This document shows positions 35,553 to 63,187 of a stretch of 64,000 nucleotides of DNA, piece by piece. Where the stretch lies: the NCBI GenBank assembly GCA_964016885.1, contig OZ024744.1, positions 5,828,001 through 5,892,000 on the forward strand, written 5' to 3'. How positions within the stretch are numbered: the first letter of the stretch is position 1; each line of letters starts with the position of its first letter. Source of the stretch: Eledone cirrhosa (lineage: Eukaryota). A model generated the notes under the pieces. That model was not told where the DNA came from, searched no databases, and saw nothing but the letters and a program-made list of their open reading frames with translations. Made by a program: the position numbers and the translations under genes.

Positions 35553-36400
35553 TAGACACTGTAGTTAGCTGCTTCATTGCGAACATCATTCTCGTTTGTA
35601 GGCATTTGAATTTTAAATGTTGAGTATCCGTCACATCTATCACATCTTTTAAATGTCGAGTACTTGTCAGAGATGCTCTATATGGTATTTCAGATAATCT
35701 TGTCGCTAATCTATCGAAAGCAATTAACAGTCAGTGCTTATGTTATCCTCTTCTCCTCGACACAGATAGTCACTTTCAGCTATGAATAAATGGTAGAAAA
35801 TAAATCAGTATCGAAAATACAGACATGAGAAGACTGAGTGAATTCTATACCGTATTGTCAGATTGATGGATCACAAGTTTGAAAGTCCACAAAATTATGT
35901 AAAAGAAATATATATATGTTATATATTTCCGTAGAAAAGGTAAGGGAAATAAGAGTGCTCTATGTATAGTACAGAGCTATTTAATTACATAATCAACAAC
36001 ACAATATAATTATTCCATTACCCAAGTTTTCCTGAAACTAGACGATTCTAACAGAGACGTCCAGTACGTTCATCAGATGAAATATTTATGTTTTTGATAT
36101 AAGATTTGAAATTAAAATCTATTAAAAATGAAAGTGACACTAAGTTAAATATCAAATTATAACAGAAAAACTCTATCTATCTATCTATGGGATGGACACA
36201 CGCGTATAACTTGCTGAGTAAGTTCTGTTTAAATTTCGATAGAAATTCTTGTCTGATAACTTTAATTTTTGTACCATTTTGTAGAGGGACTGCCAGGTCA
36301 AACTTTGATCTGGTCAGTCTCTCAAAATATTCTACGCCTTTAGGCGAAATAGTTAAACAAAAAAAAGTTTTTTCTTGTTGAAAAGTCAATATTTTTTTAA

Positions 36401-38197
36401 ATGGCCGAAGCTTCTTCACCAAAATTCGAAGGAGGAAAGGGGAAGATGAACTTACAGCTTCCCCCTGCCACTGTCACAGTAGCAGAGGTCAAGAAGAAAG
36501 GTCAGCCAGAGGAAGAATTCTCTCCACCTGTTAACCGACAACTTGACGTTGCCATGGCAACAACCCAAAGAACCAGCAGCAACAGCAACAACAACAACAA
36601 CAATGCGACGGACGAAAACAACACCAATAACAATAACAATAACAACAACAACAAGACCAATAACGGTGACAACAACAACAATGATAACAACAACACCACC
36701 AACGACAACAACAACACAAACAAACAAAATTTCTCCTTCGCCGAGACGACAAGGAAAACCCTCGACTATCTGCCAGTAGATATAACAAAAGCGAAGGAGC
36801 TACTGGCGGATGCGAAAAAATATATAGTGTACGGGGAAAATGGTTCATTCACAATCCATTCCCCCCCGGAACTAAAAAGCCAGAGACTCCTAAACACGGT
36901 CATGTTTAGGACAATCTTGAACAAAAGTAAAAAAACAGCTCAACCATCACAGAGCGAGATAGAGCTGGTTTTAAAAGACGTCATGAAGGACATCACCTTC
37001 ATTCAGAAGGATAGACTCTACGGGAGTCTATCCATTCTCATGAAGGACAGGGACACAGCAGTGAAACTGTCCATCAAACCAATCACATCCACCGCATACA
37101 CCTTCTACCCTACGTACATGGGTAGAAGAACACAAAAAATAAAAATCCACACCATCCTGCCGATTATGGACATATGGTGGGTTTTGACAGGTTTTCTGGA
37201 CCTGGAGGATGACATGCTGGTGTCCATGGGAAAGGCATCGGGTGACGCGTTCAGTGGAACGAGCCTCGAACTTGTAGTTCAAATGAGGCCCGAAAGGATC
37301 GCCCAGATCCCTGAACGCGTCATACTGGATGATCTAACCTTCATCAACATTACCGTTGAGGGTAGACGGCCCTCGTGTTACCTCTGCGGAACCAGAGGTC
37401 ACCTGAGGGCTGTCTGTCCCCAACTTAATAAGAAAACCCCAATCCTGCCTACACCACCAACAACTGCACAACCAACACAATCACCACAACTACCACTACA
37501 AAAACAACCGCCACAGCTCAAACCAAAACAAAACAATGTCCAACCCATCCCCTCCACTCAAAAAACAAAAACAATTTCCAAAACACCCGTACCGCAAACA
37601 AAACCCGAAAATATACCCCTCCCCTCCAACGCGGAAGATGACCCTAGTTCGTCGTCAGACGAGGAGGAGCACTTCCACACAATCAAAAGAAAAAAAAGAA
37701 AACACACCTCAGACACACAAATGAAAAAAACCCCTCCCCAAAACATAACACTGACACCAACACAAAAGAGCTCACAACAACAGCAAACAAAAAACACCAC
37801 ACAAAAACAAAAACATGCATACACATACATAAATACAAGAAACAAAAAACTGTTAAACATTGTGTACAACAACAATCTAATAAAAACACAAGGGCCTAAC
37901 TTCACCCAGGCAGGGGATTTCCCCCACCTCAAAATGATTAAGGCCCCACAGGACACCTATAAAACTTTAAAAAACAATTTTAAAGAAGACGTAGGTCCCC
38001 CCTGCGTCGGGCCCATTAACCGCGTTCTCCTAAAAAACTATCCCACCTCCTCCCCAAACACCCACACAACTCCAAGCTCCCCAACCACACAACACACTGA
38101 TGCCCCCACACTTCCACAAACCACCACCCCACCCAACAACCCATCCCCCACCCTAATGGAAATTGTGCAGCCCGATACCCGGGACGCAGAGAGGTAA
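36401..38197 (+). CDS. LINE ORF1 (gag-like nucleic-acid-binding protein), intact, 598 aa
   Basis: Zinc knuckle CYLCGTRGHLRAVC (CX2CX4HX4C), N-terminal poly-Asn tract, Pro/Thr/Gln-rich linker and basic KRKKRK motif. Homologous to ORF1 of copy B. Confidence 0.88.
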   Translation: MAEASSPKFEGGKGKMNLQLPPATVTVAEVKKKGQPEEEFSPPVNRQLDVAMATTQRTSSNSNNNNNNATDENNTNNNNNNNNNKTNNGDNNNNDNNNTTNDNNNTNKQNFSFAETTRKTLDYLPVDITKAKELLADAKKYIVYGENGSFTIHSPPELKSQRLLNTVMFRTILNKSKKTAQPSQSEIELVLKDVMKDITFIQKDRLYGSLSILMKDRDTAVKLSIKPITSTAYTFYPTYMGRRTQKIKIHTILPIMDIWWVLTGFLDLEDDMLVSMGKASGDAFSGTSLELVVQMRPERIAQIPERVILDDLTFINITVEGRRPSCYLCGTRGHLRAVCPQLNKKTPILPTPPTTAQPTQSPQLPLQKQPPQLKPKQNNVQPIPSTQKTKTISKTPVPQTKPENIPLPSNAEDDPSSSSDEEEHFHTIKRKKRKHTSDTQMKKTPPQNITLTPTQKSSQQQQTKNTTQKQKHAYTYINTRNKKLLNIVYNNNLIKTQGPNFTQAGDFPHLKMIKAPQDTYKTLKNNFKEDVGPPCVGPINRVLLKNYPTSSPNTHTTPSSPTTQHTDAPTLPQTTTPPNNPSPTLMEIVQPDTRDAER

Positions 38198-38221
38198 GTG
38201 CCTTTTCTCTTCACCACCAAC

Positions 38222-41200
38222 ATGGCTATGCTAAGAGTAGGCTGTTTAAATGCGCGTGGCCTGGGCTCAACTTGGAAGCAAGCAATGCTTCTAAATGACC
38301 TCAGGTCACAACGTATAGATGTGATGGTTATTTGCGAGGCCCGGATCAGCAACGTGCGACAGCTGGCCCCCACCTTTGATGACTTTGAGATGCACGCATC
38401 TCTCTGTCAGCCCGGAGGTGGGGGTGGAGTTGTCGTTCTGCTGCAAAAACATCTGGGTCTCGCAACACAGATGGTACATTTGGACCCGGAGGGTCGACTA
38501 GTGGTTCTGGACCTTGGCAGTGGTAAAGGCGGAGCGTTTAGGTTGGTAGCCGCCTACGGCCCTTTCGGGTCAATGCGGCCGAACTTCTTCCATCGTCTGG
38601 AGACTTTTCTAGGGACGTCCCGCTCCTTGCTATTAGTGAGGGACTGGAATGGTATCCTAGATGCACGCTGGGACTACGTAGGGGCCTGCCCCGATAGAGA
38701 GGGGTGTAATAGCCTCAAAGGGTTAATCGGTCGATTTGACCTGGCCGATAGATATCGACTAGATTTTCCGACTGCGCCAAACTGGACTTGGGCAAATCGT
38801 AGCGGATCATCTAGGTCGTACCTAGATAGGTTCTTAGTTAGAATTAAGGATAAGGACTTTTTAAGTTGTCCAAAAATGCGCATGGTTGGCTATTCAGACC
38901 ACAAATTAGTGACCTGCGTGGTCAACCTTGACAGAACTCATAGACAGGGACCCGGTTACTGGAAGCTCAACTTGTCCTTACCGGCAAGTAAGGCTTACAG
39001 GAACCGGATTAGCACTTTAGTTAAGGAGCGGTTGACGGGCGCCATCGTCAACAGCAGGTGGTGGGGATCTCTCAAAAGAGAGATTAGAGTAGTCTCTATA
39101 GAATTTAGTAAGGAGTTAGCCTCAAATAGAAATAGGAAGGAAAGGGAGTTGGTAGATAGTGTAGAAGAGGCAATTAGAAGCGGCGACGTGGCCAGAGTGC
39201 TAGCGCCGAGAACGGCCCTGGGCCAGTTCTTCGACGCGAAACACGAAGGCTGCATCGTCCGAAGCAAAATACGTGCTCTGGGAAACGAGGGCACCAAAGC
39301 TGTTAGCTGATCCCGCGTGACAGAAGCCAAAAGAGGGAGCAGATCCACTATCCGGTCTTTGCAAGACCAGGATGGACGGGTGATCCTTGAACCTAAGCAG
39401 ATGTGCGAAGCTTTTCAAAAGCACTTTGCCGGAATGTTCGGAAGGGGCGGGGGGCCGGTTTGGGACGTGGACTTCGGTCCATACCTCGACGGCCTGCCGC
39501 ATCTCTCGGACAGGGAGGCGAAGTCCTGCGAGGAGCCGATTTCAGCCGCTGAGATAGAGGACGTGCTGAGCCAATGCGGCAAACGCAAATCCCCGGGTCT
39601 CGATGGTCTTCCATACGAACTATATCTAGCTATGCCGGACTTGTTCCCCGAACTCCTCGAGGCGGTCTACTGCAACTGGCAACAGAACGGGAGAATTCCC
39701 TGTGCTGTGACCAAGGGCGTAGTCACGCTAGTGAGGAAGGACGAGAACAAGGGGGATGATATAAATAATTTCAGGCCCATAATTCTGCTAAATACAGAGT
39801 TACAGATTTTGGCCAAGGTGCTAGCAAAGAGGTTGGCGCTTGTCGTGGGCAACCTGGTGGGAGATGCGCAGACATGTGCTATCCCGTCCAGGTCCATCCA
39901 CGATAACCTCCACCTCATGAGATACATCATAGAGAGGGTTGGGAACGAACCCGGCTTTGGTGGGGCCCTGATCAACTTGGATCAATCTAAGGCATTCGAT
40001 AGGGTCGACCATGGTTACCTGGATGCGGTGCTAGCGGCGGCAGGCTTTGGACCCGTTATCAGGGGCTGGATCAATGCCATGCACAGCAGCCGCATCTGCT
40101 CTAGGGTCAAGGTGAACGGCTACCTCTCGGAGCCGTTCGAAATCGCGCGGTCCATCCGACAGGGGTGCCCTCTCTCCTCCCTTCTGTATGTAATGACTCT
40201 AGAGCCACTGCTGCGGAAGTTGGAGTTGTTGCAGGGCATCCCGTTGGAACCGGGATTGCGGAAAGCGGTGTCAGCCTACGCCGATGACGTAACAGTAATG
40301 GTGTCGACGGCCTCGGAAATCAGGGCGATCGGCACCTTACTGGAGGAGTACGAAAGGTTTACAGGGGCTAAGCTGAACCGGGACAAGTCGATCGGTCTGC
40401 AACTCGGCACGTGGAGGGGCAGATCGATGCCCTCCGATGGCGTCGTCGGGCGCTGGACGGAGGGCCCGGTGAAGTTACTCGGGGTCTGGTTCGGACCAGA
40501 CCTCCAGGTGGAGAAGAACTGGGGTGAGGTGACGAACAGGGTGTTTGCACTGACCCAGAAGTGGGCCGAGTGCAAACTGTCCCTGAAAGGACGGGGGGAG
40601 GTGGCGAACACTTATATAGCGTCCGTCATCTACTACCGCCTGACCGTTGTGCCTTGCCCAAAGGAAACGCTCGCCAAAATTGAGCGCGCACTCTTCCAAT
40701 TCCTTTGGAAGAAGCGGGCTCCTATGGTGAGGAGATCCATCTGCTGTCAACACCCTTCGAAAGGAGGGCTGGGGATGCCGTGGCTAATGATACGTAAACA
40801 CGCATTAAGGCTACGGCACCTCCAGGTATTCCTCTCCGGTCAACCGGTGTGGGCCCCGTTTGTGAGGCGAACCTTTCCCAGACTCGTCTCACTCACCGAG
40901 CTGCAATCCTGGGTCAAGCAAAGACCGAGAAAACTGGGCCCCTGGCACATCGAGTGTGCCCAGGCGCTCACGGCTCTCTGGCAGGCGGACCCGGCTCTCA
41001 GTGGAGAATCCACCTCGTCATTCTATAGAGGGCTGGTGGTTAGCAGGTGCGACGACGCCCTCGGAGAAGCCCTAGCCATGGAGGAAGACAAACTGGCCAA
41101 CCTGTTCGGTAGGACATTCAGCCCGGGACCCATGGATAACTTCCAGAGGTCCCTGGCCTGGCAGTGCTACAGAAGGGCTCTGCCCGTTCGAGAAAGGCTA

Positions 41201-41659
41201 TACAGACACGGGCGCCCGGATAGCGACCCCTCGAAAAAGATCTGTCCCAGATGCGTGTGCGACGAGGAAACCGTTGCACACGCATTGGTATACTGCTCGG
41301 GCATTGCTGATCTGTGGGGCTATGTCGAACAACTGCTGTCAAGGGTGTGACCGATACGGTTGACCACCGAGTCTATTGTAACGATCAAGCCGCCTACCCT
41401 CTTCAAAAACGAAGAAGAGGCGGTGTTTCTGTGCGTAATAGCCATGGCGAAAGAGGTTGTATGGTGGACGCGTCTGAAAGGACTGAGGTCAGACACCTTT
41501 CTCTCTGGCCAACAACTGGTCCGTTTCTTCCGATATCATTTCGGAAGAAGGATCAGGATGGAGAGAGAGGTGCTGCACCCCAGCCGTTTTTATGAAAGAT
41601 GGATGAAAGTGGCGAGAATGGCCCGTGTGAATGGGCCTTCACTCTACATCAGACTATAG
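38222..41659 (+). pseudogene. LINE ORF2 (AP endonuclease, reverse transcriptase, C-terminal Zn finger); one frame with two in-frame TGA stops
   Basis: APE motifs LNARGL, ICE, (G>R)DWN, SYLDR, SDH; RT motifs KSPGLDG, NFRPI, LDQSKAFDRV, IRQGCPLS, YADD; Zn finger CPRC..ETVAHALVYC. ORFs 38198, 39317 and 41360 share a frame, with stops at 39308-39310 and 41348-41350. Confidence 0.92.
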
Positions 41660-42170
41660 GTGAGGAAGATGAAAGACCAAGGGAGCATCCCTTCTCTGTG
41701 CTCCTGAGGAAAACGGTTGCACACTTTTTTCGGGGGTGTGTGCGACCTGCCAAGGCGCCTCCTCTCTATTGAGGATGTTGTTATAAATTTTATTCTGTTA
41801 TATTTTATTTTTATATTTTGTTATTGCCTCCTCCTTATTGAGGACGCCTTGTTTTGTAAACTTCCCCCATTGTACTTGTCCCACTTTTGATGCCCTGGTG
41901 GCAAATAAAAGAAACATATCTATCTATCTATCTATCCATCTATCTCTCTACCAGACGTGTGTAACTACGCGGAGAAGTTTCCGTTAATTTATGTAAGAAA
42001 AAAACGTGAGTTTTCAGTTAATTTTTATATTATTGTGTAACTTGACCCCCCGACTGGACCTTCAGCGGTGGGTCAACTCATTTTCGCCCCTACAGGGGCG
42101 AAATATTCGTCTGAAAAATTTTTTCTCCATCGAATTTTTGCAAAAATTTCGTAAGAAGTTTGATTACGTT

Positions 42171-44077
42171 ATGAACGCTGCGTCCAACGATAATGGTGGT
42201 GGAGAGTCGGTAAGACTACATAGCTCGCAGTCAACATCGTCTTCTTCCCTAGATACTATGGAGATGGAAAGACGAAATGAAAATGTAAAAACAAATTCAT
42301 ATCCAAACAACACAAATGACACCAAACAATACAATGACAACAAAAATAACAACAACACCAATAATGATGATAAAAACAACAATGACAACAACAACAAAGA
42401 AAAAAATAAAGACAACACCAATAACACCAGCATCAAAGACAACAACAACACCAACACCAACACCAAGGAAAATACGAATAATATCAACATCAGTGACAAC
42501 AAGAATAACAACAACAATAACAACAATAATGACAACACCACCAACACGGATAATTCGACAAAGAAACCAAATTTCCTTTGCACAGACAGTTAAAAAAAAG
42601 GAGGAACTGACATATCTCGACATAACAAATGCCGAACAACTTTTAAAGGACGCTAGGAGATATGTCACTCTCGAAAAAAATGGTGCTTTCAGCATCAATT
42701 CTCCGGTAGAAATTCGCAAGGAAACTGCTCTCAAAACGATAGTTTTTAGGACAGTTTCCAATTCTACCCTAAAACCAGTCCAATTGTCACAGAAAGAAAT
42801 TGAACTGGTTTTCAAAAATTCAATGAATGATATTGCATTCATTCAAAGAAGCAAACTTTTTGGGAGTATTTCGGTACTCATGAAGGATCAATTGACGGCC
42901 CAAAATTACACTGTGTCGCCAATTGTATCCAACCTGTATACATTTTTCCCTACATACATGGGAAAAAGGACACAAAAGATTAAAATCACGAGTGTCACGC
43001 CAAAGGTGAACATATGGTGGATACTGTGCGGCTTCATCAATTTTGATGAAGACAGAATAGTGTCAGTAGGAAAGTCCCCCAGAGATGTATTCAATGGGAC
43101 TAGCATTGAAGTTCTGGTGCAAGTGATCCCAGAGCGAATAGCTATGATCCCACAACGTGTACTCCTGGACGGACTCACCTACATAAACTGTTCGGTTGAG
43201 GGTAGGCAGCCTTCATGTTACCATTTCTTTAGCAGGGGTCACCTGAGGGCTTCCTGTCCTAAATTAATGAGTCAAAAAAAGGCTCCTCTGCCGACACCCA
43301 TCAAAACAACACAACCACAACAACAACAACACCAACACACAAAAATAATCACAACAAACACAGTCCCACCCAACCCCACTCCACCTAAAACCACTGCAAA
43401 ATCACACACAGGCACAACAGCTCCCGAAGACATACCCGTCCCCAATCACACAGACGATACAACAGATGAGGCTATCTCGCCATCACCCAGTGAGAACCCC
43501 ATCGCTCGAAAAGAAAGGATAGACATCACAAAAGCAAAAAACCAGCAAACACTAGCACAAACATACAACCACCAACACAAACAACAGAAACATCACAAAC
43601 AAACCCCCACCTCCTGAAAACAAAATACCTACAACAAAACGAAAGCACACACAAGAACTACAGACAAAAACAAACACAACACAAGAAAATTACACTTACA
43701 CTTACATAAACACTGAAAACAAAACACTAATGGAGACCATCACGAACGACCCTTCGGTGAAAACCGAAGGGAAAACTTTCGCCCACTCTATTAAAAATAA
43801 CAAAAAACTGAACCTAAAACTGATTAGGGTCCCTATACAAACTTATAGGTCCCTAAAAGAAACATTTGAAAAGGATGTGGGGAATTCCTGCGTGAAACCA
43901 CTTAACCGCGTCCTTCTCAAATGTCTCCCCACCCCAGACACCCCCATCCCACCAGACCCCACCTCACCAAACATCTCCGTCCCCACCCCGCCGGAAACCA
44001 CCGCCCACCCAGGCAACCCCTCCAATACCTCCATGGAAATCGTGCAGCCTGGTCCCCAGGAGACGAAGGGTGGGTGA
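42171..44077 (+). pseudogene. ORF1 of copy B, frameshifted
   Basis: ATG at 42171, poly-Asn tract, frameshift near 42575 (NFSFA motif), degenerate knuckle CYHFFSRGHLRASC, another break near 43500-43620. C-terminal LNRVLLK...MEIVQP is shared with copy A. Confidence 0.85.
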
Positions 44078-44109
44078 TCTTTTTCCTCTTTTAACTTTTC
44101 AGCACCAAC

Positions 44110-47100
44110 ATGGCCAATATAAGAGTTGGATGTGTGAACGTACGCGGCCTGGGGATGCCCTGGAAACAGGGCAAACTCTTAAACGACCTCAGGTCGCACA
44201 GTATGGATGTGGTAGCCATTTGCGAGTCCAGGATCCACAGCGAGCGACAGCTGGCCCCCATCTTCGACGACTTTGAGATCTACGCATCTCTATGTCAACC
44301 GGGGGGTGGGGGTGGAGGAGTTGCCGTTTTGCTGCGGAAACACCTGGGCCTCGTAACACAGACGTTACATCTGGACCCGGAGGGTCGACTGGTGGTCCTA
44401 GACGCTGACGGTAGTGAAGGTGGAGCCTTCAGGCTGGTGGCTGCATATGCCCCATCCGGGACACCACGGCGAGACTTCTTCAAACGTCTAGAGACTTTTC
44501 TGGGAACGTCCCGCTCCTTGCTTTTAGTGGGGGACTGGAATGGAATCCTAGATGCACGTTGGGACTATGTGGGAGCATGTCCCGATAAAGGGGGGTGTAA
44601 CAGCCTCAAACAGTTAATCGACCGATTTGACCTGGCCGATAGATATCGACTAGATTTTCCGACTGTGCCACTGTGGACGTGGACTAATCGCAGTAGAACA
44701 TCTAGATCGTACCTAGATAGGGTTCTAGTTAGAAATAAGGATAGGGACATGTTAAGCTGTCCACAAATGTTCATGGTTGCCTATTCAGATCACAAACTAG
44801 TGACCTGCATGGCCAACCTTGATAGAACCCATAGACAAAGACCCGGCTACTGGAAGCTGAACTTGTCGTTATCGACAAGCAAAGCCTAGAGTAGACAGAT
44901 TAGCACTTTTGTTAAACAGCACTTGACAGGTGCCATTGTCAACAACAGATGGTGGTACTCTCTCAAGAGGGCAGTTAGATTAGACTCGTTAGTTTTTAGT
45001 AAAGAATTAGCGTTAGATAGAAATAGAACCGAGAAGGAACTGGTAGATAAATTAGAAGAGGCAATTAGAAGTGGCAACGTAGCCAGCGTGCTAGCAACGA
45101 GAACGGCCTTGGACCAGTTCTTCGACGCAAAGAACGAGGGCTGCGTTGTCAGAAGCAAAATATGTGCTCTGGGAAACGAGGGAGCCAAAGCTGTTAGCTG
45201 GGCCCGAGTGACGGAGGCAAAAAGTGGCAACAAGTCCACGATTCGGTCTTTGAAGGACCAAAACGGACGCGTGATACGTGAAACGAAGCAGATGTGTGCA
45301 GTCTTTCAGCGGCACTTTGCTCAACTGTTCGGGCGGTTCGGCGCGCCGGGAGGGGCTATGGATTTCGGTCCATACCTCGACGGCCTACCGCGACTCTCGG
45401 ACAGCGAGGCAAAGTTCTGCGAAAAGCCGATTTCAGCCGCTGAGATAGGGGACGCGCTTAGCCAATGCGGCAAACGCAAATCTCCAGGTCTCGACGGTCT
45501 ACCCTACGAATTTTACGTAGCAATGCCGGACTTATTCTCCGGCCTCCTGGAAGCGGTCTACTGCAACTGGCAACAGAACGGGAGAATTCCCAGTTCTGTA
45601 ACCGGGGGCGTGGTCACACTAGTCAGAAAGGACGAGAATAAGGGGGATGACATAGGCAACTTCCGGCCATAACTCTGCTAAACACAGAGTTACAGATTTT
45701 GGCCAAGGTGTTGGCAAAGAGGCTGGCGCTTGTCGTCGAGAACCTGGTGGGAGAAGCGAAGACATGCGCAATACCGACCAGCTCCATACACGGCAACCTC
45801 CACCTCATGCGATACATCATAGAGAGGGTATGGTGTAAACCCGGCTTCGGTGGGGCCCTGATCAACTTGGATCAGTCTAAGGCTTTCGATAGGGTTGACC
45901 ATCGTTACCTGGATGCGGTGCTCGAGGCGGCAGGCTTGGGACCCGTGTTCAGGGGCTGGATTGCTGCAATGCACAACAGCAACATCTGCTCAAGGGTCAA
46001 GGTGAACGGCTACCTCTCGGAGCCGTTCCATATTACGCGATCCATTCGACAGGGATGCCCTCTCTCCTCCCTTCTGTATGTACTGACTCTCGAGCCACTA
46101 CTGCGGAAGTTGGAGCTATTGCAGGGCATCCCTCTGGAACCGGGACTGCGGAAAGCGGGGTCGGCCTACGCCGACGATGTGACAGTAATGGTGTCGAGCG
46201 CCTGGAAATCGAGGAAGTAGGCACCTTACTGAAGGAATACGAAAGTTTCACAGGAGCGAAGCTGAACCGGGACAAGTCCATCGGTTTGCAACTCGGATCG
46301 TGGAGAGGCAAACCGATGCCTTCCGATGGCGTCGTCGGACGCTGGACGGAAGGACCGGTAAAGCTGCTCGGGGTCTGATTTGGTCCGGACCTCCAGGTGG
46401 AGAAGAACTGGAACGAAGTGACGGCCAAGGTATTTGCACTCACTCAGAAGTTGGCCGAGTGAAAACTATCCTTGAAAGGTCGAGCGGAGGTGGAGAACAC
46501 TTTTATAGCGTCCGCCATCTACTACCGCTTGACCGTCGTGCCTTGTCCAGCCCAAACGCTCTCCAAAATGGAGCGCGCGCTCTTCCAATTCCTTTGGAAG
46601 AGGCGGGCTCCTTTGGTGAGAAGATCCATCTGCTGCCAACATCCTTCTAACGGAGGGCTGGGGTTGCCGTGGTTGACGATGCGCAAACACGCGCTCAGGC
46701 TGCGGCATCTCTACGTATTCCTCACCGGACAACCGGTGTGGGCCCCGTTCGTGAGGCGAGCCTTCCCACGACTGGTCTCACTGACCGACCTGCAGTCCTG
46801 GGTCAAGCAAAGACCGAGGAAAATGGGCGACTGGCACATCGAATGTGCTCAGGCGCTCACAGCCCTCTGGCAGGCGGACCCGGCGATCAGTGGAGACTCC
46901 ACTTCGCCATTCTATAGAGGGTTGTGACGCAGCAAGTGCGACGACGCGCTCGGTGAAACTCTAGGCGTAGAGGAAGATGAACTGACTAGTCTGTTCGGTA
47001 GGACCTTCCGCCCGGGACCAATGGACAACTTCCAAAAGTCCCTGGCCTGGCAGTGCTACCGAGGAGCTCTACCAGTTCGAGAAAAGCTCTACAGACATGG

Positions 47101-47548
47101 GCGCCCTGGCAGGGACCCTGCAAAAAAGATCTGTCCGAGATACGTGCGAGACGAAGAAACCGTCGCGCACGCATTCATACACTGCCCGGGCGTCACTGAC
47201 CTGTGGGGCTATGTAGAACGACTATTGTCGCGGGTGGGACCAATCCAGTTGACCACCGAGTCCATTGTCATGATCAAACCGCCACCCTCCTTCAAAAACG
47301 AAGGAGTGGCGGTTTTCCTTTGTGTGATAGCTATGGCGAAAGAGGTTGTATGGTGAACAAGGTTGAAAGGGCTGAGGTCAGACACCTTTCTCTCCGGCCA
47401 ACAACTGATTCTTTTTTTCAAATACCACTTTGGAAGAAGAATCAGGATGGAGAGAGAGGTGCTGTACCCCAGCAAGTTTTATGAAAGGTGGGTGAAAGTG
47501 GCGAGAATGGCACGAGTGAATGGGCCTTCTCTCTATATCAGCCTGTAG
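44110..47548 (+). pseudogene. ORF2 of copy B (APE, RT, Zn finger), disrupted
   Basis: GDWN, SDH, LDQSKAFDRV, QGCPLS and YADD motifs. Stops at 44887, 46376, 46460, 46925 and 47354; frameshifts near 45670 and 46200. Confidence 0.9.
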
Positions 47549-47788
47549 GTTGAGGAAAAGGAGGAGGAGAGGAAAGGAGTACAAACTCTTCGTACTCCTG
47601 GAGATGAGGGTTGCACATTTTTTCGGGGGTATGTGTTACCCATATGAACTGTCTCCCCCTATTGGGGAAAATCGACTAATTTTTTAAATTGCATTTGTGA
47701 TAACATTTTACACGTTTTTATTGTATGTAAACTTCCCCCTTTGTATTTGTCCCCTTCTTTTGTGCCCCTGTGGCTAATAAAGAAACAT

Positions 47789-47797
47789 ATCTATCTA

Positions 47798-47829
<32 letters not shown>

Positions 47830-48446
47830 CACACAGACACACATACAAATATACATACATGCGCGCATCTATACGTACATCCATATACACTCTTACATTA
47901 GACATATAAGCGCGTCAATCATATATACATACTCATACACATACACACATACATCCACACACACACACACACATATATATATATACATACATACGCATAC
48001 ACATACATACACACAATATGCATACATATACGCATACACACACATATTATGTATATATATATATATATATATCGTAACTCCACCTTCGTGGAGGCCTTCC
48101 GAGTGCTCGTTTCCGCTCGCGCGGATACCACTCGGCAACTGCGATTTTAGGAATACGATTGAGACTATATGGATGAGAAAAGCACGATCCAGAGAGGAAT
48201 GGACGTCGTGCTGTGACCAGCGGTCAAGGTGATCAAGGTGATATATATCTATATATACATACATACATACACGAACGCTCACACACATACACATACATAC
48301 ATAAAAACAAACACATATATATATATGAAAGAAAATATATACACACACTCACGATAAAAACCCACGCAATATATAAAGTAAGAAAGGACATGCATAAGAT
48401 ATATTTAAAAATGCCAAAAATAATAAAAATTATAAAAATTAACAGC

Positions 48447-48504: not shown

Positions 48505-48680
48505 TGAAACAAAATGAAAACGAAATTTCATTTCTCACTCTTAGTATGGCACTTACTTAAATGTAAGTATGCATGTATACGTACATACATATATGTATAC
48601 AGACGTACAGTAGCATGCACATATATATATATATATACATATATACATACATATGCATACAGGTACACATACATATGGGT

Positions 48681-48727
48681 AAACGGTGCTGATGATAGCT
48701 AACAAGCTTGAAACTAGTACATCGTTC
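48681..48727 (+). ncRNA. Minimal type I hammerhead ribozyme, copy 1
   Basis: Stem I AACGGTG/CATCGTT, core CTGATGA, stem II AGC/GCT, then GAAAC-TA-GTA with palindromic ACTAGT stem III. Confidence 0.8.
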
Positions 48728-49154
48728 CTGTGTCAGTGTTGAACAAAGGGGTGACGTGGTTGCCTTAACACCGTGTGGCATAAATTCAGGCTGTTCAGTT
48801 TGTTTACAAACGAACAAAGCGACGTTATAATAAGCGCCGCTAAACTGATACGTGCATATATGTATGTGTACCTGTATGCATATGTATGTATATATGTATA
48901 TATATATATATATATGTGCATGCTACTGTACGTCTGTATACATATATGTATGTACGTATACATGCATACTTACATTTAAGTAAGTGCCATACTAAGAGTG
49001 AGAAATGAAATTTCGTTTTCATTTTGTTTCAAAGTATCGTTTTCGGTATGCCTGACCGATTTAACTCACTCAATATGCAAATTAGGCTGCTCAGCTGTTA
49101 ATTTTCATAAGGAAAGTATATACTTTCGAACGTTCAACTATCTGGCAGATGGGT

Positions 49155-49201
49155 AAACGGTGCTGATGATAGCTAACAAGCTTGAAACTAGTACATCGTT
49201 C
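49155..49201 (+). ncRNA. Minimal type I hammerhead ribozyme, copy 2
   Basis: Same motif as copy 1. Confidence 0.8.
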
Positions 49202-49626
49202 CTGTGTCAGTGTTGAACAAAGGGGTGACGTGGTTGCCTTAACACCGTGTGGCATAAATTCAGGCTGTTCAGTTTGTTTACAAACGAACAAAGCGACGTT
49301 ATAATAAGCGCCGCTAAACTGATACGTGCATATATGTATGTGTACCTGTATGCATATGTATGTATATATGTATATATATATATATATGTGCATGCTACTG
49401 TACGTCTGTATACATATATGTATGTACGTATACATGCATACTTACATTTAAGTAAGTGCCATACTAAGAGTGAGAAATGAAATTTCGTTTTCATTTTGTT
49501 TCAATTTATCGTTTTCGGTATGCCTGACCGATTTAACTCACTCAATATGCAAATTAGGCTGCTCAGCCGTTAATTTTCATAAGGAAAGTATATACTTTCG
49601 AACGTTCAACTATCTGGCAGATGGGT

Positions 49627-49673
49627 AAACGGTGCTGATGATAGCTAACAAGCTTGAAACTAGTACATCGTTC
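49627..49673 (+). ncRNA. Minimal type I hammerhead ribozyme, copy 3
   Basis: Same motif as copy 1. Confidence 0.8.
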
Positions 49674-50509
49674 CTGTGTCAGTGTTGAACAAAGGGGTGA
49701 CGTGGTTGCCTTAACACCGTGTGGCATAAATTCAGGCTGTTCAGTTTGTTTACAAACGAACAAAGCGACGTTATAATAAGCGCCGCTAAACTGATACGTG
49801 CATATATGTATGTGTACCTGTATGCATATGTATGTATATATGTATATATATATATATATGTGCATGCTACTGTACGTCTGTATACATATATGTATGTACG
49901 TATACATGCATACTTACATATATATATATTTATATATATAAATATATATATATATATAAATATGAGGAAACATAATAGTGCCACAGACGTGCGACGAAAG
50001 AACTTTGATAGACTATATATATATCTGTATTTTTAACCGTTGGTCAGTCAATGATAAACATTGATTGCCAAATAAATTAACAGTGGAGATATAAAAGATA
50101 CAGAAAACCAACCAAACAGTGAGTGTGTTCTGTTGTTATTTCTGTAATATCATAACAATATGAACCTCCCCAAGTATAACAATATATATATATATGATAA
50201 GAATAAAGATAAAATAAAAAATATTTTAAAAATGATAAATAAAAGTAAAAAATAAATACATGGATACATTAAGAGAAAGATACAAAACGGGCCAGACAGT
50301 CATACATATATATACATACAAATATGTAAACACGCACATATATGTAAATATACATACACACGCTTATCCGCATATATAAATACATACATACACTCAAACA
50401 TATACATATATATATATACACATATATATATATATATATATGTATATGTCGGTGTAAAGATATATAGAAAAATACAATGTCGACATACAGATTTATACAT
50501 ACATATATA

Positions 50510-50597: not shown

Positions 50598-50701
50598 TGT
50601 TCAATGAAAAATAGTTAGTTGATTCAGCATCAGCTGACCTTTATATAACAGATGTAAAGCACTCAACGGTATATGCTTATCCGGAATTTAATCATAATAA
50701 T

Positions 50702-50886
50702 TGTTTCTACTTTAGGCACAAGGCCAGCAATTAACCAGTACATTACTGGTACTTTATTTTATCGACCCCGTAAGGATGAAAGGCAAAGTTAACCTCGGCG
50801 GGATTTGAACTCAGACTGTAAAGGGACGTAACTCTGCTAGAAAGCATGGCGTCCAACCCTCTACCGATACTGCCAATTCAACGCCC
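50702..50886 (-). mobile_element. tRNA-derived SINE (cephalopod-type, Nin/Deu-like central domain)
   Basis: Minus strand has A box TGGCAGTATCGG, B box GAGTTCAAATCC, central GCCTTTCATCCTTACGGGGTCGATAAAATAAAGTACCAG and 3' end GGCCTTGTGCCTAAAGTAGAAAC. Confidence 0.85.
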
Positions 50887-50887
50887 T

Positions 50888-51077
50888 TTGTTTCTATCTT
50901 AGGCACAAGGCCAGCAATTAAAACAGTGTATTACTGGTACTTTATTTTATCGAACCCGTAAGGATGAAAGGCAAAGTTAACCTCGGAGGGATTTGAACTC
51001 AGATCATAAAGGGACGTAACTCTAAGCTTCAAAGCATGGTGTCCGACTCTCTACCGATACTGCCAATCCACCGTCCG
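50888..51077 (-). mobile_element. tRNA-derived SINE, second copy in tandem
   Basis: Same A/B boxes and body. The pair is enclosed by the 15-bp direct repeat TTTAATCATAATAAT (50687-50701, 51078-51092). Confidence 0.85.
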
Positions 51078-57865: not shown

Positions 57866-60600
57866 TAGTTCTTTATAAATGAACTGGTTAACTTATACCA
57901 TATAACCAGTTCATTTATAAAGAACTAAGGAAGAACTATAAGAAAACCAGTAGTACAGCACTCACCTCTATAAACAATAAATCACACACCATAGTAAAGG
58001 AACTCAACATCGAAGATAGAACCGAACCTTTCCCACCAGAAAATCCACACTTTAATCTGAAAGATCATAAATCTAACTTCAACTCGAACCCATCGATTAG
58101 ACTCATATGCCCCTCTAAGTCGGACATTGGAGTAATAAGCAAGAAGATTCTTGGTAACATTATTCCACAACTAAGGAAACATATAAAACTGCCGCTATGG
58201 GAAAACACTTCCCAAGTTATCAATTGGTTCACCAACATCAAAAATAAGCCCTCAGCTTCATTTCTCCAATTCGACATCGATGCATACTATTCATCAATAT
58301 TCCCCATACTACTGAACAAAGCATTAATTTTTGCCAAAAATAGATCGGACTTAACTATGAATGAAATTAAGATCATCACACACGCTAGACAAACTCAATT
58401 GGACTTCCAAGACGAGTATTGGACTAGAAATACTTATAGTGATTTATATGATATCACTATGGGCTCGAAGGATTCCGCCCATTTACGGACCTTGTGGGCC
58501 TATTCCTCCTACATAATTTAAATTCCTCTTTTCCCCACCTTAATGGTGGTCTATATTGCGATGACTGTCTTCTTCTAGCTAATAATCTTAGTCTCTCAGC
58601 AATTGAGAGAAATAAAAAGCATATTAGAAAATTCCGCAAAAACTACTATAATCTTACGGTTACTTTTGAAAATAACACTAAAATGGTCAATTTCCTCGAC
58701 ATCAATTTAGACCTATCAACAGGCAGTTACCAACCCTACCATAAACCAAACCAAAACGTCCATTATATGTACTCACTATCTAACCACCCTAGTTCCATAC
58801 TAAACAATCTAGTGTACAATATCTCACTCAGACTATCTAAATTATCATCTAGTGAATAAATATTCTACAAAAATGCGCCTTATTATAATGAGGTTTTAAC
58901 TAGAAGTGGCTACAAAGATAAAATATTTTACATACCTAACACGATGAATACCCCCTAGCATACAGCCAACCATAAACAACAAACACCGTAGAAAACACCA
59001 AAAAGTTAGTGCCAGCAATGAAACACCGAAAAACCTAGATCCTACCATTACTCCCAATATCCACATTAACACGAATGACACAAATTCTCTAAAAATCATC
59101 AATCCTAACGATTCTGAATATTTCTATAACCTACCTAATATTATTACTACAGACCATACGAAAACACCTAACTCCACTACACTTAAAAAATGCAGTTAAT
59201 AATAACACCTTATATCTTAATTCTCACAATAAACCTAATGATATATCACCTATCAAATCGAACCTTCAACATAACCCAAATACATCCTTGCAATCCCCAA
59301 ATCTAGGGAAACATGTCTGAACTACCGTATATAACAGGAATGATACCGAAATTCCAGGTCCTATCAATAATGCTCCATTAACAAAACTCACAATATACTC
59401 TAAAAATCAAACAAAAAGCAATAATTCAAAAACTAATACAATTCAAAAATCTACTAAACAATTAGTTCACACCATAATAACAATCACAATATTATAATTT
59501 CATCTGATAACAGTATCTACCCTCAAACTTCTATACATACCCAATATCTTAAGAGGAAACCTTTTAGAAACCATAAAAGAAATGTAATATGGTATAACGC
59601 TCCATTCAACTTGCAATCTATGGGCCAAATCCCTAAAAAATGTTTTACAATTCTCGATAAGCATTTCCCACCTAACCACAAATACCATTAAATCTTAAAC
59701 AGAAATACAGTAAAATTTTCTTACTCCATATCGAGCAATATACAACAAAAAATAAGTGCATATAACATCTATAAATGTAAAAAAAGCTCCATCTATACCA
59801 CACACAAGATAACTATGGTAATACTACAACGCCTAACCAGAATATTACTGCATACCCACCTGATAGATCCGCTCACTCACCTCACCAGCACAATATAGCA
59901 GACTACAACCAACTACCATCTTCCTCATCCTTAATAGGGACTAAGATTTACATACCCAATCTAATTAATAGCGTCCAAAACAACCATGATTCCATAAACG
60001 CTATATCAAGTATAATTTCACCTACTAGCAACAATTCGGACCGCAGCCACCCTACCGTAAACCCTTCTCTCCCAAATAAAAAGGTAAACACAAATACTAG
60101 CACTATTATTGTGAATATGGATAGCACATCTGAAACCCTATATGCAAACGGTTGTAATTGTAGAATAAAAGATAATTGCCCCTTAAATGGAAATTGCTTA
60201 ATTAATAATATAGTATATAAATGTGTAATCACCACTAAGGACTCTAATCAATCCTATATTGGATCCACTTCTAATCCATTTAAATCGAGATTCTATGCAC
60301 ACACCCACAGTTTCCGAAACACAAAATTAGCAAATATCACTTCTTTAGCAGAAGCATTTAATAATTGTAAAAAGAGGAATATTAAATATAACCTAACTTG
60401 GAAGATTCTTAAGAGAGCTATTTCTTATCAGGGTAATAGAAGGGAGTGCGGACTATGTTCCCAAGAAATCTTTGAAATTACCAAATCGAAGGACACTCTA
60501 TTAAATAAAAGACGAGAATTAATTTTAGTATGTAACTATAAAATTAGAAGGACATTCAAATATTATAAACACAACTAAACAAATATAGAAAATGATATAG
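57866..60600 (+). mobile_element. 5'-truncated, decayed Penelope-like element (RT + C-terminal GIY-YIG; possibly Hydra-type)
   Basis: From 57901: LKDHKSNF..NPSIRLICPSKSDIG.ISK.IL, FLQFDIDAYYSSI, DITMGS.DSA, GLYCDD, VNFLDINLDL, WYNAPF, CNCRIKDNCPLNGNCL..IVYKC..YIGST..FKSRFYAH. Several stops and frameshifts; final stop at 60578. Confidence 0.9.
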
Positions 60601-60865
60601 GTGAAAAAATGTGTGAGTATATGTGTGTGTGTGTGTGTCAAAATGTATATCTGTGTATGTATATGTATGTATATGCATAAATGTATGCCTATATATAAAC
60701 ATGTGTGAGTGTACATGTATATGTGTGTATGAATATAGTAAGTGTATGTGTGTGTGCATGCATATATATGTGTATATATGTGTGTCAGTATAAGTGTGTA
60801 TATGTATATGTGTGTACATATATGCGTATGTATATCTATGTATACATATATATTTTTGGAAAGCC

Positions 60866-60916
60866 AGATTCCTGATGATTTATAAAGAATGAAACAGTTC
60901 TAGTCCTGTAGAATCT
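60866..60916 (+). ncRNA. Type I hammerhead ribozyme in Penelope pseudo-LTR
   Basis: Stem I AGATTC/GAATCT, core CTGATGA, weak AU-rich stem II, GAAA, stem III ACAG/CTGT and cleavage triplet GTA. Followed by ATTAAAACCTTT, as in the 57.5-kb motif. Confidence 0.75.
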
Positions 60917-61046
60917 CATCTATATTAAAACCTTTATACTCTGCTATGTATTGAGTATCTTACTTACTGTGGTTACCTCCGATTCAACCCGGAATAACGT
61001 ACCTTTTAGCACTCTCTGTACCCCTTATAACCATCACCAAGAAACT

Positions 61047-63187
61047 ATGCTGACCAAACTCGACCTTGATGTCTCCATGAAGAACATCCCCATCCCTCCA
61101 AGGAAACTATACCTAAAAACACTTATCAGACGTACCGACGAGTTCATCAAGCGAATTAGATGGAGAGCCTTCTTCCTCGACAACCCTGATGTAGCATCTA
61201 CCAATGATGAGAAGTTCGGCTTCAAAACGAATAAGGCACCACCCACCAACAGCCTACTTGAACTATTTGAAGAAGACCTCTTCAAGATGATCAAATATAT
61301 CAAATTTAGTAGAGCCCCCACACCATTCCAGGCCTACTTAAATACTGAATTGCGGAATATAAAAAAATCCTCTAATCTTCATGTCCCCTCCGATAAAACC
61401 AAAAACGTTTATGAGGTAGACCCACAGACCTACAATAAACTGGCCAAAAATGCCATCACGACCACCTACAAAAAGGTAATAGAGATGGCATTGACTGAGA
61501 CAAACGTGGCCGGAAAAGAAATCGCCAATTCCCTTAAATTACATGACTGAACTGAACCTTTAAGGGTAAAGATCCCGCACTTTACCCTGAAGGACCATAA
61601 GGGAAACTTCCTCAACAAACCATCAGTCAGACTTATCAACCCCACTCGTTCAGACATCGGCTCTATCAGTAAGAAGATCCTAGATAGTGTTCTACCATCA
61701 TTGTGGGTTGCCTCACCACCCCCACTCTGGAGCATAGCATCTGAGGCAATATCTTGGCTCCAAGAATTACCCGACAAACGCCACACTCGCTTCCTGCAAC
61801 TCGACATAGGAACTACTATGCTTCTATCTCGGAGCCCCTCCTGAAGGACGCAATTACCTTTGCCAGGAATTTTACCACAATAACCGATGCTGAGCAAGTT
61901 GTTATCCTCCACGCCCGTAAGACCTTTCTATACCACGATGGATCTTATTGGATCAACAAGAAGTCTCAGACCCCATTTGAGGTGAGCATGGCAACGAGTG
62001 ACTCGGCTGAAAGTAGCGACTTATACATTTTACATCACCTGAAGAACCTCTTTACTGGCCTAACCGTATGTTTATACCGAGACGACGGCCTCTTCGCCCT
62101 GCACAAGGTTAACCCCAGAACCACCGATGGGTTTCGGAGAAACTTAAGCTCGTTCTTCTGTAATCTAGGATTTAGTATAACTATAGAATCTAATATGACT
62201 AGGGCCAACTTCTTAGATGTCACTCTCGACCTAGATAGTTCCCTCTATTACCCGTACCACATACCTAACGAGTCCCTTAGATATATTAATGTTAATTCTA
62301 ACCACCCCCAAAACATCACTGATAACTTAGTAAAAAGCGTCTCTATTAGAATCTCTGGCCTCTCTGCCAATGAAGATATTTTTAACGCCTCTGCCTCCTA
62401 CTACAATGACGCCCTCGCCCGCAGCGGACTTAAAGAAAAGATAACCTACATAGAAACCACCGCAAGACTGCAGAGGAAGAATAGGCATAGGCAGATTAGC
62501 TGGTACAACCCTCCCTTCAATAGAGAGGTCTCTACACCTATAGCTAGGATTTTCTTCACTTTGCTGAACACACACTTCCCCATACAACATAGGTACTACA
62601 CCATCTTTAATAAGAACACAATAAGACTTTCCTACTCCACCACACTTAACCTAGCTAGGAATATAGCCAATCACAATTCTAAAAAATTAAATAAGCCAAC
62701 CTGTCCCGAACCCAATCCCCGGACTGGGGCCTTGTGTAATTGCTTAAATAAGGAAGCATGCCCACTTGAAAACAAATGCTTGACAAATGATATCGTATAC
62801 AAATGCGATGTCATCTCAGGCACCGATGATTGCAACAACAAAAAGACTTACATCGGCATGACCTCCAATAACTTTAAGACCCATTGGTATGCCCATACCC
62901 ACTCCTTCAGAAGACCGGACAAATCAAACCAGACAACACTCGCCTCCTATGTTTGGGACCTCAAAAGTAACTCCACCCCCTTCGCGCTTAAATGGAAAAT
63001 ACTCCAGAAAGCGCGCTCTTACAACGGAGGACACAAGGGCTGCGACCTTTGTATCTCAGAGAGCTACGACATTTTATTCGCCAAGGGCTCGTTACTGAAC
63101 AAACTCTCTGAACACTGCCCGAACTGCATGCAATAGAACTTTGCAACTTTCAAATACTTTAAGCCAGTGTTAAAGCCCGATGGCTAA
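61047..63187 (+). pseudogene. Near full-length Penelope-like ORF (RT + GIY-YIG endonuclease), disrupted
   Basis: ATG at 61047; SMKNIPIP..Y...LI......IKRIRWRAFF, LKDHKGNF, FLQLDI, LYRDDG (catalytic), NFLDVTLDL, WYNPPF, CNC..CPL..KCL..IVY..YIGMT. TGA at 61548, frameshift near 61808, TAG at 63134. The Hydra-clade assignment is from recalled motif similarity only. Confidence 0.9.

Follow-up and report, generated by a model that had tools for sequence, protein, structure and literature searches.

What placed two LINEs of different families head to tail between ATCT repeats, and is the repeat the DNA into which they inserted or a tail that they carried with them? In the 64-kb window (the whole stretch of DNA that was analysed), two same-strand elements follow one another, A at 36189-41916 and B at 41950-47787, and the three perfect runs of at least three ATCT units in the window all flank A or B. 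An earlier note on this DNA had described repeats 5′ of A, between A and B, and after B, together with shared 3′ ends that lack poly(A). Both descriptions were borne out: both elements terminate in AATAAA(A)GAAACA and adjoin TATCT, and all three repeats are present, the one after B comprising just 3 TATC units (47788-47799) followed by (TC)n and (TA)n. The features of the array are as follows.

36172..36188, + strand: (TCTA)4 tract, measured as (TCTA)4.2, directly 5′ of A.
36174-36188, + strand: target-site duplication of A, 5′ copy, 15 nt, identical to 41917-41931.
36189..41916, + strand: LINE copy A, near full length, inactive; 39 full-length relatives retrieved.
36401..38197, + strand: ORF1 of A, 598 aa, open, with an Asn-rich N terminus and a single CCHC knuckle.
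38222..41659, + strand: ORF2 of A, with APE, RT and zf-RVT; in-frame stops at 39308-39310 and 41348-41350.
41904..41916, + strand: 3′ end of A, AATAAA signal then AGAAACA, without poly(A); the same in 75 distinct A copies.
41917..41949, + strand: ATCT spacer between A and B, 33 nt, (TATC)8.5 at 86% match.
41950..47787, + strand: LINE copy B, full length, inactive, of a separate family; 20 full-length relatives.
42171..44077, + strand: ORF1 region of B, in several frames.
44110..47548, + strand: ORF2 region of B, with APE and RT, stops and two frameshifts.
47776..47787, + strand: 3′ end of B, AATAAA signal then GAAACA, without poly(A); 58 distinct B ends.
47788..47804, + strand: duplication of B, 3′ copy, matching 41933-41949 at 16/17 nt; (TATC)3 running into (TC)n.

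Neither copy is active, A being interrupted by its two ORF2 stops and B by stops and frameshifts, and A is without the 2-nt CT head that most members of its family have. Pfam domains in the window LINEs are APE, RT and zf-RVT. The spacer resolves into the 3′ duplication of A (41917-41931) and the 5′ duplication of B (41933-41949), and the duplications of both elements lie within repeat sequence. The DNA of A and B is 82% identical over 3660 nt of the ORF2 region and 65% identical over 962 nt of the ORF1 core (52% at the amino acid level over 235 residues), and blastn found no match between the 5′ UTRs. Because A and B belong to separate high-copy families and each has its own duplication in the window, they are independent insertions, as the earlier note had proposed, and tandem duplication of a single element is ruled out.

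At first look, a sequence search of the genome returned 1156 and 1311 candidates for the two ends of A, and 1656 and 804 for those of B. We scored the best 40 of these 804-1656 candidates per search; the loci are mostly young and close to the query. The queries stopped inside the element, so the flanks had no part in choosing matches. The ORF2 DNA of A is 92-98% identical to that of its full-length relatives, mostly about 94%. ORF2 is open in 30/39 full-length family A copies and both ORFs are open in 23/39, with intact ORF2 proteins 96-100% identical to one another, mostly >99%. An intact ORF2 was found in none of the 20 full-length family B copies. On one intact family A copy (L114), Pfam recognized Exo_endo_phos, RVT_1 and zf-RVT and gave no match to RNase H. 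The families have the architecture of the L1 group (ORF1 plus ORF2, an N-terminal APE, RT and a C-terminal zinc motif) and show the 5′ truncations (43 junctions in 58 loci) and variable duplications that target-primed reverse transcription leaves. Elements of the Tx1 clade have an ORF1 with a CCHC zinc knuckle; ORF1 of A has one CX2CX4HX4C motif, which in L114 scored below the Pfam cut-off for zf-CCHC (E=0.051).

The insertion preference is visible at the 3′ ends. Among 133 distinct A/B ends, 120 run directly into TATCT (69/75 for A and 51/58 for B). Only 5 have TATATATA after the element, even though random DNA contains this word 7 times as often as TATCT. Off-pattern ends (TATAT, TATTT, TGCCT, TTTCT and CATCT) place the junction within one base of the TATCT start. 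The preference is not strict, because about 4% of ends lie in (TA)n, where they are without any TATCT. A random sample of 60 arbitrary 10-kb stretches held 7 A/B-like ends, 6 of them with ATCT. Cases of (TC)n were scattered only (L148 and L220). A candidate (AATC)n-targeting family, raised by L036, was rejected, as 0/29 other loci end in AATC and most end in the ATCT type. The dinucleotide before TATCT (CA, TA or CT) was likewise rejected as part of the target: it tracks subfamily branches and, at L023, differs from the 5′ flank. Among 56 metagenome relative loci, mostly about 20-35% identical and uninformative, ATCT flanks were absent in the 32 inspected.

5′-truncated copies are the more telling class. 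Excluding 8 internal rearrangements and 1 duplicate from the 43 junctions leaves 34, of which 25 have at least 2 ATCT units within 25 nt upstream; such units are absent in the other 9/34. Background in 600 kb of random genome is 0.23% (545/239,995 25-nt windows with at least 2 units). Even where no LINE tail lies upstream, 16/22 truncated copies still show ATCT units 5′ of the break, which is at odds with ATCT restricted to 3′ ends and random 5′ flanks, the pattern that the earlier note had named as fatal to a target. Its proposal of ATCT targeting is supported.

Duplications of 11-20 nt (microhomology included) that extend past the periodic repeat into locus-specific letters occur at 11/34 truncated copies versus 46/1116 mismatched pairs (p 7e-8), and they start at TATCTAT. 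At L023 the duplication is 19-20 nt long; L089 has an additional duplication of about 90 nt. Several truncated copies (L010, L022) showed no target-site duplication. Six informative loci (L023, L024, L064, L079, L087 and L088) lack any additional repeat unit ahead of the duplication; together with the (TA)n ends that lack TATCT, this establishes the 3′ repeat at these loci as target DNA. Because truncated copies keep upstream ATCT and carry locus-specific duplications, the ATCT repeat is more than a tail and constitutes a target. A search for an empty allele of 35560-48300 in two contig sets and one RAD run gave none among the 15 joints shown (of 477) that skips the elements, the matches being swamped by family copies and 5′-flank repeat.

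Upstream ATCT is also found at 53/59 full-length copies (36/39 for A, 17/20 for B). Part of it is element-borne: L104 sits in (TA)n and starts with a short ATCT leader nonetheless, and in L100 about 22 additional bases of repeat separate the duplication from the element head. Full-length A copies therefore bear a short ATCT leader of their own. A 5′ repeat on a full-length copy, on which the earlier note relied, is therefore not decisive by itself; proof of a target comes from truncated copies and duplications.

Three further observations concern the 5′ side. Two full-length A copies (L034 and L048) and a truncated B copy (L071) share upstream sequence, and an ATCT tract inside another repeat family has therefore been hit repeatedly. 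Some copies at different loci share truncation positions (L008/L021, L071/L080, L070/L086 and L080/L085), mostly where the element starts with letters matching the repeat, which suggests microhomology-guided 5′ joining. The 5′ heads of A, C, D and minor families mostly have GTAAG at about 25-40 nt from the start, with a T-rich stretch after it; the motif looks like a splice donor.

The random stretches also contained elements with the same 3′ UTR design that end in (ATT)n. These (ATT)n-flanked elements form two further families:

Families C and D, flanked by (ATT)n: loci L158, L164, L260-L299 and L396-L410.

Their distinct 3′ ends start with ATTATT in 56/61 cases, and there is no crossover of targets, TATCT being found at 0/61 C/D ends and ATTATT at 0/133 A/B ends. 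Family D is very young: its ORF2 is open in 19/20 copies, which are about 98-99.7% alike, and it forms head-to-tail arrays. ATT lies upstream in all 19 family D copies with parsed heads and in 3/6 truncated ATT copies (internal deletions excluded), and L171 has a locus-specific duplication that starts at ATT behind a T. Families C and D thus likely target ATT, which is less firmly shown than ATCT targeting because truncated ATT copies are few. At three loci (L285, L280 and L284), a SINE-like unit of about 170 bp, with (ATT)n tracts on both sides of it, precedes family C copies; it is possible that this unit shares the ATT targeting.

To place the two target classes, we compared their reverse transcriptases and endonucleases. 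The RT tree is a quick tree of 58 rows, with no curated Tx1L, Kibi, Koshi or vertebrate L1 rows. In it, A and B group with L167 (SH-aLRT 100), their clade is sister to ATT family C (99), and ATT family D falls outside A/B/L167 plus C with a support of 80, so that we draw its placement as open. Target class follows the branching. An ATCT clade sister to C, with D outside at weak support, suggests an ATT-to-ATCT switch in the history of the lineage. The lineage joins vertebrate proteins named YTX2 at source (support 82-87), apart from plant and Dictyostelium rows, and the score is 333 bits for a fish relative over residues 1-800 as against 167 bits for human L1 on the whole protein; Tx1 membership is likely on these protein comparisons.

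The catalytic residues of the APE are conserved in the family. If the +1 T is RNA-encoded, the ATCT junctions place the nick at 5′-TAGAT/A-3′ on the GATA strand, with a one-base ambiguity, and L171 would place that of the ATT class at 5′-AATAAT/A-3′; both sites appear to fit a T/A step. The human L1 nick, TTTT/AA, is also a T/A step (PMC1950540). In the segment aligned to the L1 specificity hairpin, most ATCT families have NRSG[ST]S where both ATT families have NRIGSS, and a few further APE positions separate the classes. These residues are leads that may reflect mere ancestry, because APE identity between the classes is only about 62%. In the part of PMC1950540 available to us, swapping the hairpin-tip residue H198 of human L1 left nicking unchanged. 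A single-sequence structure prediction of the APE reached a pLDDT of 33 and was set aside.

We consider it probable that the two L1/Tx1-type families from which A and B independently inserted use TATCTAT/(ATCT)n as landing sites, with short duplications and no poly(A), likely through a predicted APE nick of the (GATA)n strand at that T/A step, and we infer from the sequences that the APE itself reads ATCT. The element RNA would extend beyond the AATAAA signal by a few bases, reach the repeat and pair with the nicked primer, and this proposed pairing would account for the absence of poly(A); the first T after the element would possibly come from the RNA. Transcripts would begin in the upstream repeat, giving full-length copies their short ATCT leader, and every insertion would duplicate the target, so that mixed-family head-to-tail arrays would grow. 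The ATCT lineage would have arisen from an ATT-targeting ancestor through changes in the APE.

A rival reading, which we regard as unlikely, moves the choice of target from enzyme to RNA: the APE would be a loose T/A nicker, pairing between DNA and a read-through tail from the last landing site would pick the target, and ATT and ATCT would be self-sustaining states inherited via the RNA. One T/A step suits both classes alike, the hairpin loop differs between them by about one residue (NR[S]GSS versus NR[I]GSS), and the element-borne leaders show that flanking repeat gets transcribed. That the RNA reaches into the repeat is further suggested by poly(A) at 0/133 distinct A/B ends and by the near-invariant T at position +1 (99-100%). 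By contrast, target class tracks the RT tree across at least nine distinct 5′ heads that follow ATCT and at least four that follow ATT, and about 38% of APE sites differ, which is ample for a difference in specificity. The A copies that landed in (TA)n (L104 and L111) lie apart in the family tree and so give no sign of an inherited switch, albeit with a tiny n. Pairing of the RNA with the target may contribute to the choice of site.

Recognition of ATCT by the enzyme also fares better than the possibility that ATCT is an element-made tail and leader, that insertion is random and that arrays arise by slippage or read-through copying, which we judge very improbable. CR1/L2 elements have microsatellite tails, the leader is present on full-length A copies even in (TA)n sites (L104), and 6/21 random-DNA ATCT tracts adjoin these LINEs against 3% expected by chance, so elements may help to build tracts. 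Truncated copies cannot carry the leader and have upstream ATCT regardless, locus-specific duplications open with TATCTAT on both sides, and (TA)n ends lack TATCT; the element-made tail is largely refuted. Unspecific insertion with survival of copies in microsatellite-rich DNA under weak selection, barely credible even though (AT)n makes up 3.5% of the random sample, is refuted by phase, orientation and controls, in that ATCT is 0.135% of the sample, 26-fold less than (AT)n, and still takes 120/133 ends in fixed phase and orientation, control tracts adjoin these LINEs at chance ((ATAC)n 1/51, (AC)n 3/127, (AT)n 6/230), and family A includes copies whose ORF2 proteins are 99.2-100% identical, an age that leaves little time for sorting.

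Sequence related to these LINEs amounts to a rough 6.4% of the random sample (38,674/600,000 bases). Among 21 sampled ATCT tracts, a script flagged 8 as near these LINEs, of which 6 proved on inspection to be genuine junctions, the other 2 being part of a different repeat; 5/36 ATT tracts adjoin them. The association of ATCT tracts with LINEs fits either target saturation or growth of tracts by the elements. Another dispersed repeat starts directly after (TATC)n in 4/21 random ATCT tracts (L150:6626 and 7574, L155:5662, L330:4992), and may travel with these LINEs or have the same target. A large unnamed sister group (P0004-P0076) has ORF2 proteins 38-55% identical, some in clusters of hundreds of members. 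Tentatively, and with more doubt than confidence, one can picture a single LINE radiation, young, intact and amounting to about 6% of the DNA sampled, that split into ATT- and GATA-targeting lineages by a few APE changes, such as Ser/Ile at the hairpin tip, with the GATA lineage making its own landing pads and, through its duplications and ATCT leaders, being a main source of the genome's GATA microsatellites. If so, a target switch has been caught with both enzymes still intact.

Microsatellite-targeting Tx1 elements are already known. Their targets include TC, TTC, TTCC and TTTC (PMC4494074), and the available part of a review lists ACAY, AC, TC, TTC and TAA, without GATA (PMC3812793); TG was added by PMC4640811. 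Kibi in (TC)n and Koshi in (TTC)n of teleosts, and crocodilian Tx1 families in (TTCC)n/(TTTC)n (PMC4494074, PMC3812793), resemble the present families as two-ORF, APE-type L1/Tx1 LINEs, each confined to one microsatellite type, with related families holding different units. They differ from the families described here in target, (ATCT)n/(GATA)n with (ATT)n sisters, and in host, an octopod-like mollusc. PMC4494074 calls a family target-specific when one repeat type occurs in >20% of flanks; for ATCT the corresponding values are 120/133 3′ ends, 25/34 truncated 5′ ends and 53/59 full-length 5′ ends. The targets of Kibi and Koshi proper are rare at these ends (TATCTCT at 1/133, TTC at 0/133), with (TC)n upstream of 3/20 full-length B copies. 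No named Kibi or Koshi protein was among the 111 and 120 matches listed. The fish relatives found have an ORF2 of about 1300-1340 aa, versus about 1145 aa here, and the best fish protein among the matches listed is 31% identical; the closest named protein listed, from Argonauta hians, is 67% identical over 41% of the query.

Dong shares its (TAA)n target (PMC3812793) with the ATT sister families, and in Octopus vulgaris Dong-R4 is an abundant element with recent activity (PMC13282606). It differs from them in belonging to the R4 clade, with a restriction-like endonuclease (as labelled in PMC13282606, and PMC4640811), whereas the ATT sisters encode an APE; PMC3812793 places Dong among APE elements. 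Human L1 ORF2p (PDB 8sxt), the best PDB match (E 5e-48), has the same APE-RT architecture and catalytic residues. Human L1 is promiscuous and needs poly(A), unlike the elements here, which do without poly(A) and use one repeat. An expansion of L1-Tx1 in coleoids has been noted (PMC8967140), and the Octopus vulgaris annotation counts 80 L1-Tx1 consensus families, 56 Mb in all, with 13 recently active (PMC13282606); A/B-type families are probably among these or their orthologues. The word 'target' occurs 0 times in the available text and supplement of PMC13282606, which report no insertion preference. No GATA- or ATCT-targeting LINE was found in the literature searched; Repbase and Dfam, outside its scope, may list one. 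Within that literature, as far as the sources were available, the GATA target is new, and the preference itself is real and well supported.

How target sequences of APE retrotransposons are gained and switched is described as poorly understood in the accessible part of PMC3812793. Here, two lineages in one genome, with ORF2 68% identical between D and A and many intact copies of each, use different microsatellites. The A/D pair suits swap tests of guidance by enzyme versus RNA and makes the basis of a target switch testable, and such elements are a possible source of repeat-targeted insertion tools. For octopus genetics, the flanks of GATA markers may often be repetitive, because 6/21 sampled GATA tracts adjoin multicopy elements.

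The remainder of the window holds other repeats. An 18-bp satellite, repeated about 1972 times at 93% match and containing one assembly gap, fills 1-35203, and the long ORFs within it are translations of the repeat. A 472-bp unit is present in 2.6 copies at 99% (48675-49919), and a 188-bp unit in 1.9 copies (50701-51067), which we take to resemble an octopus SINE. Broken ORFs at 60117-63136, with weak GIY-YIG matches (E 0.003-0.06), are likely Penelope-like elements.
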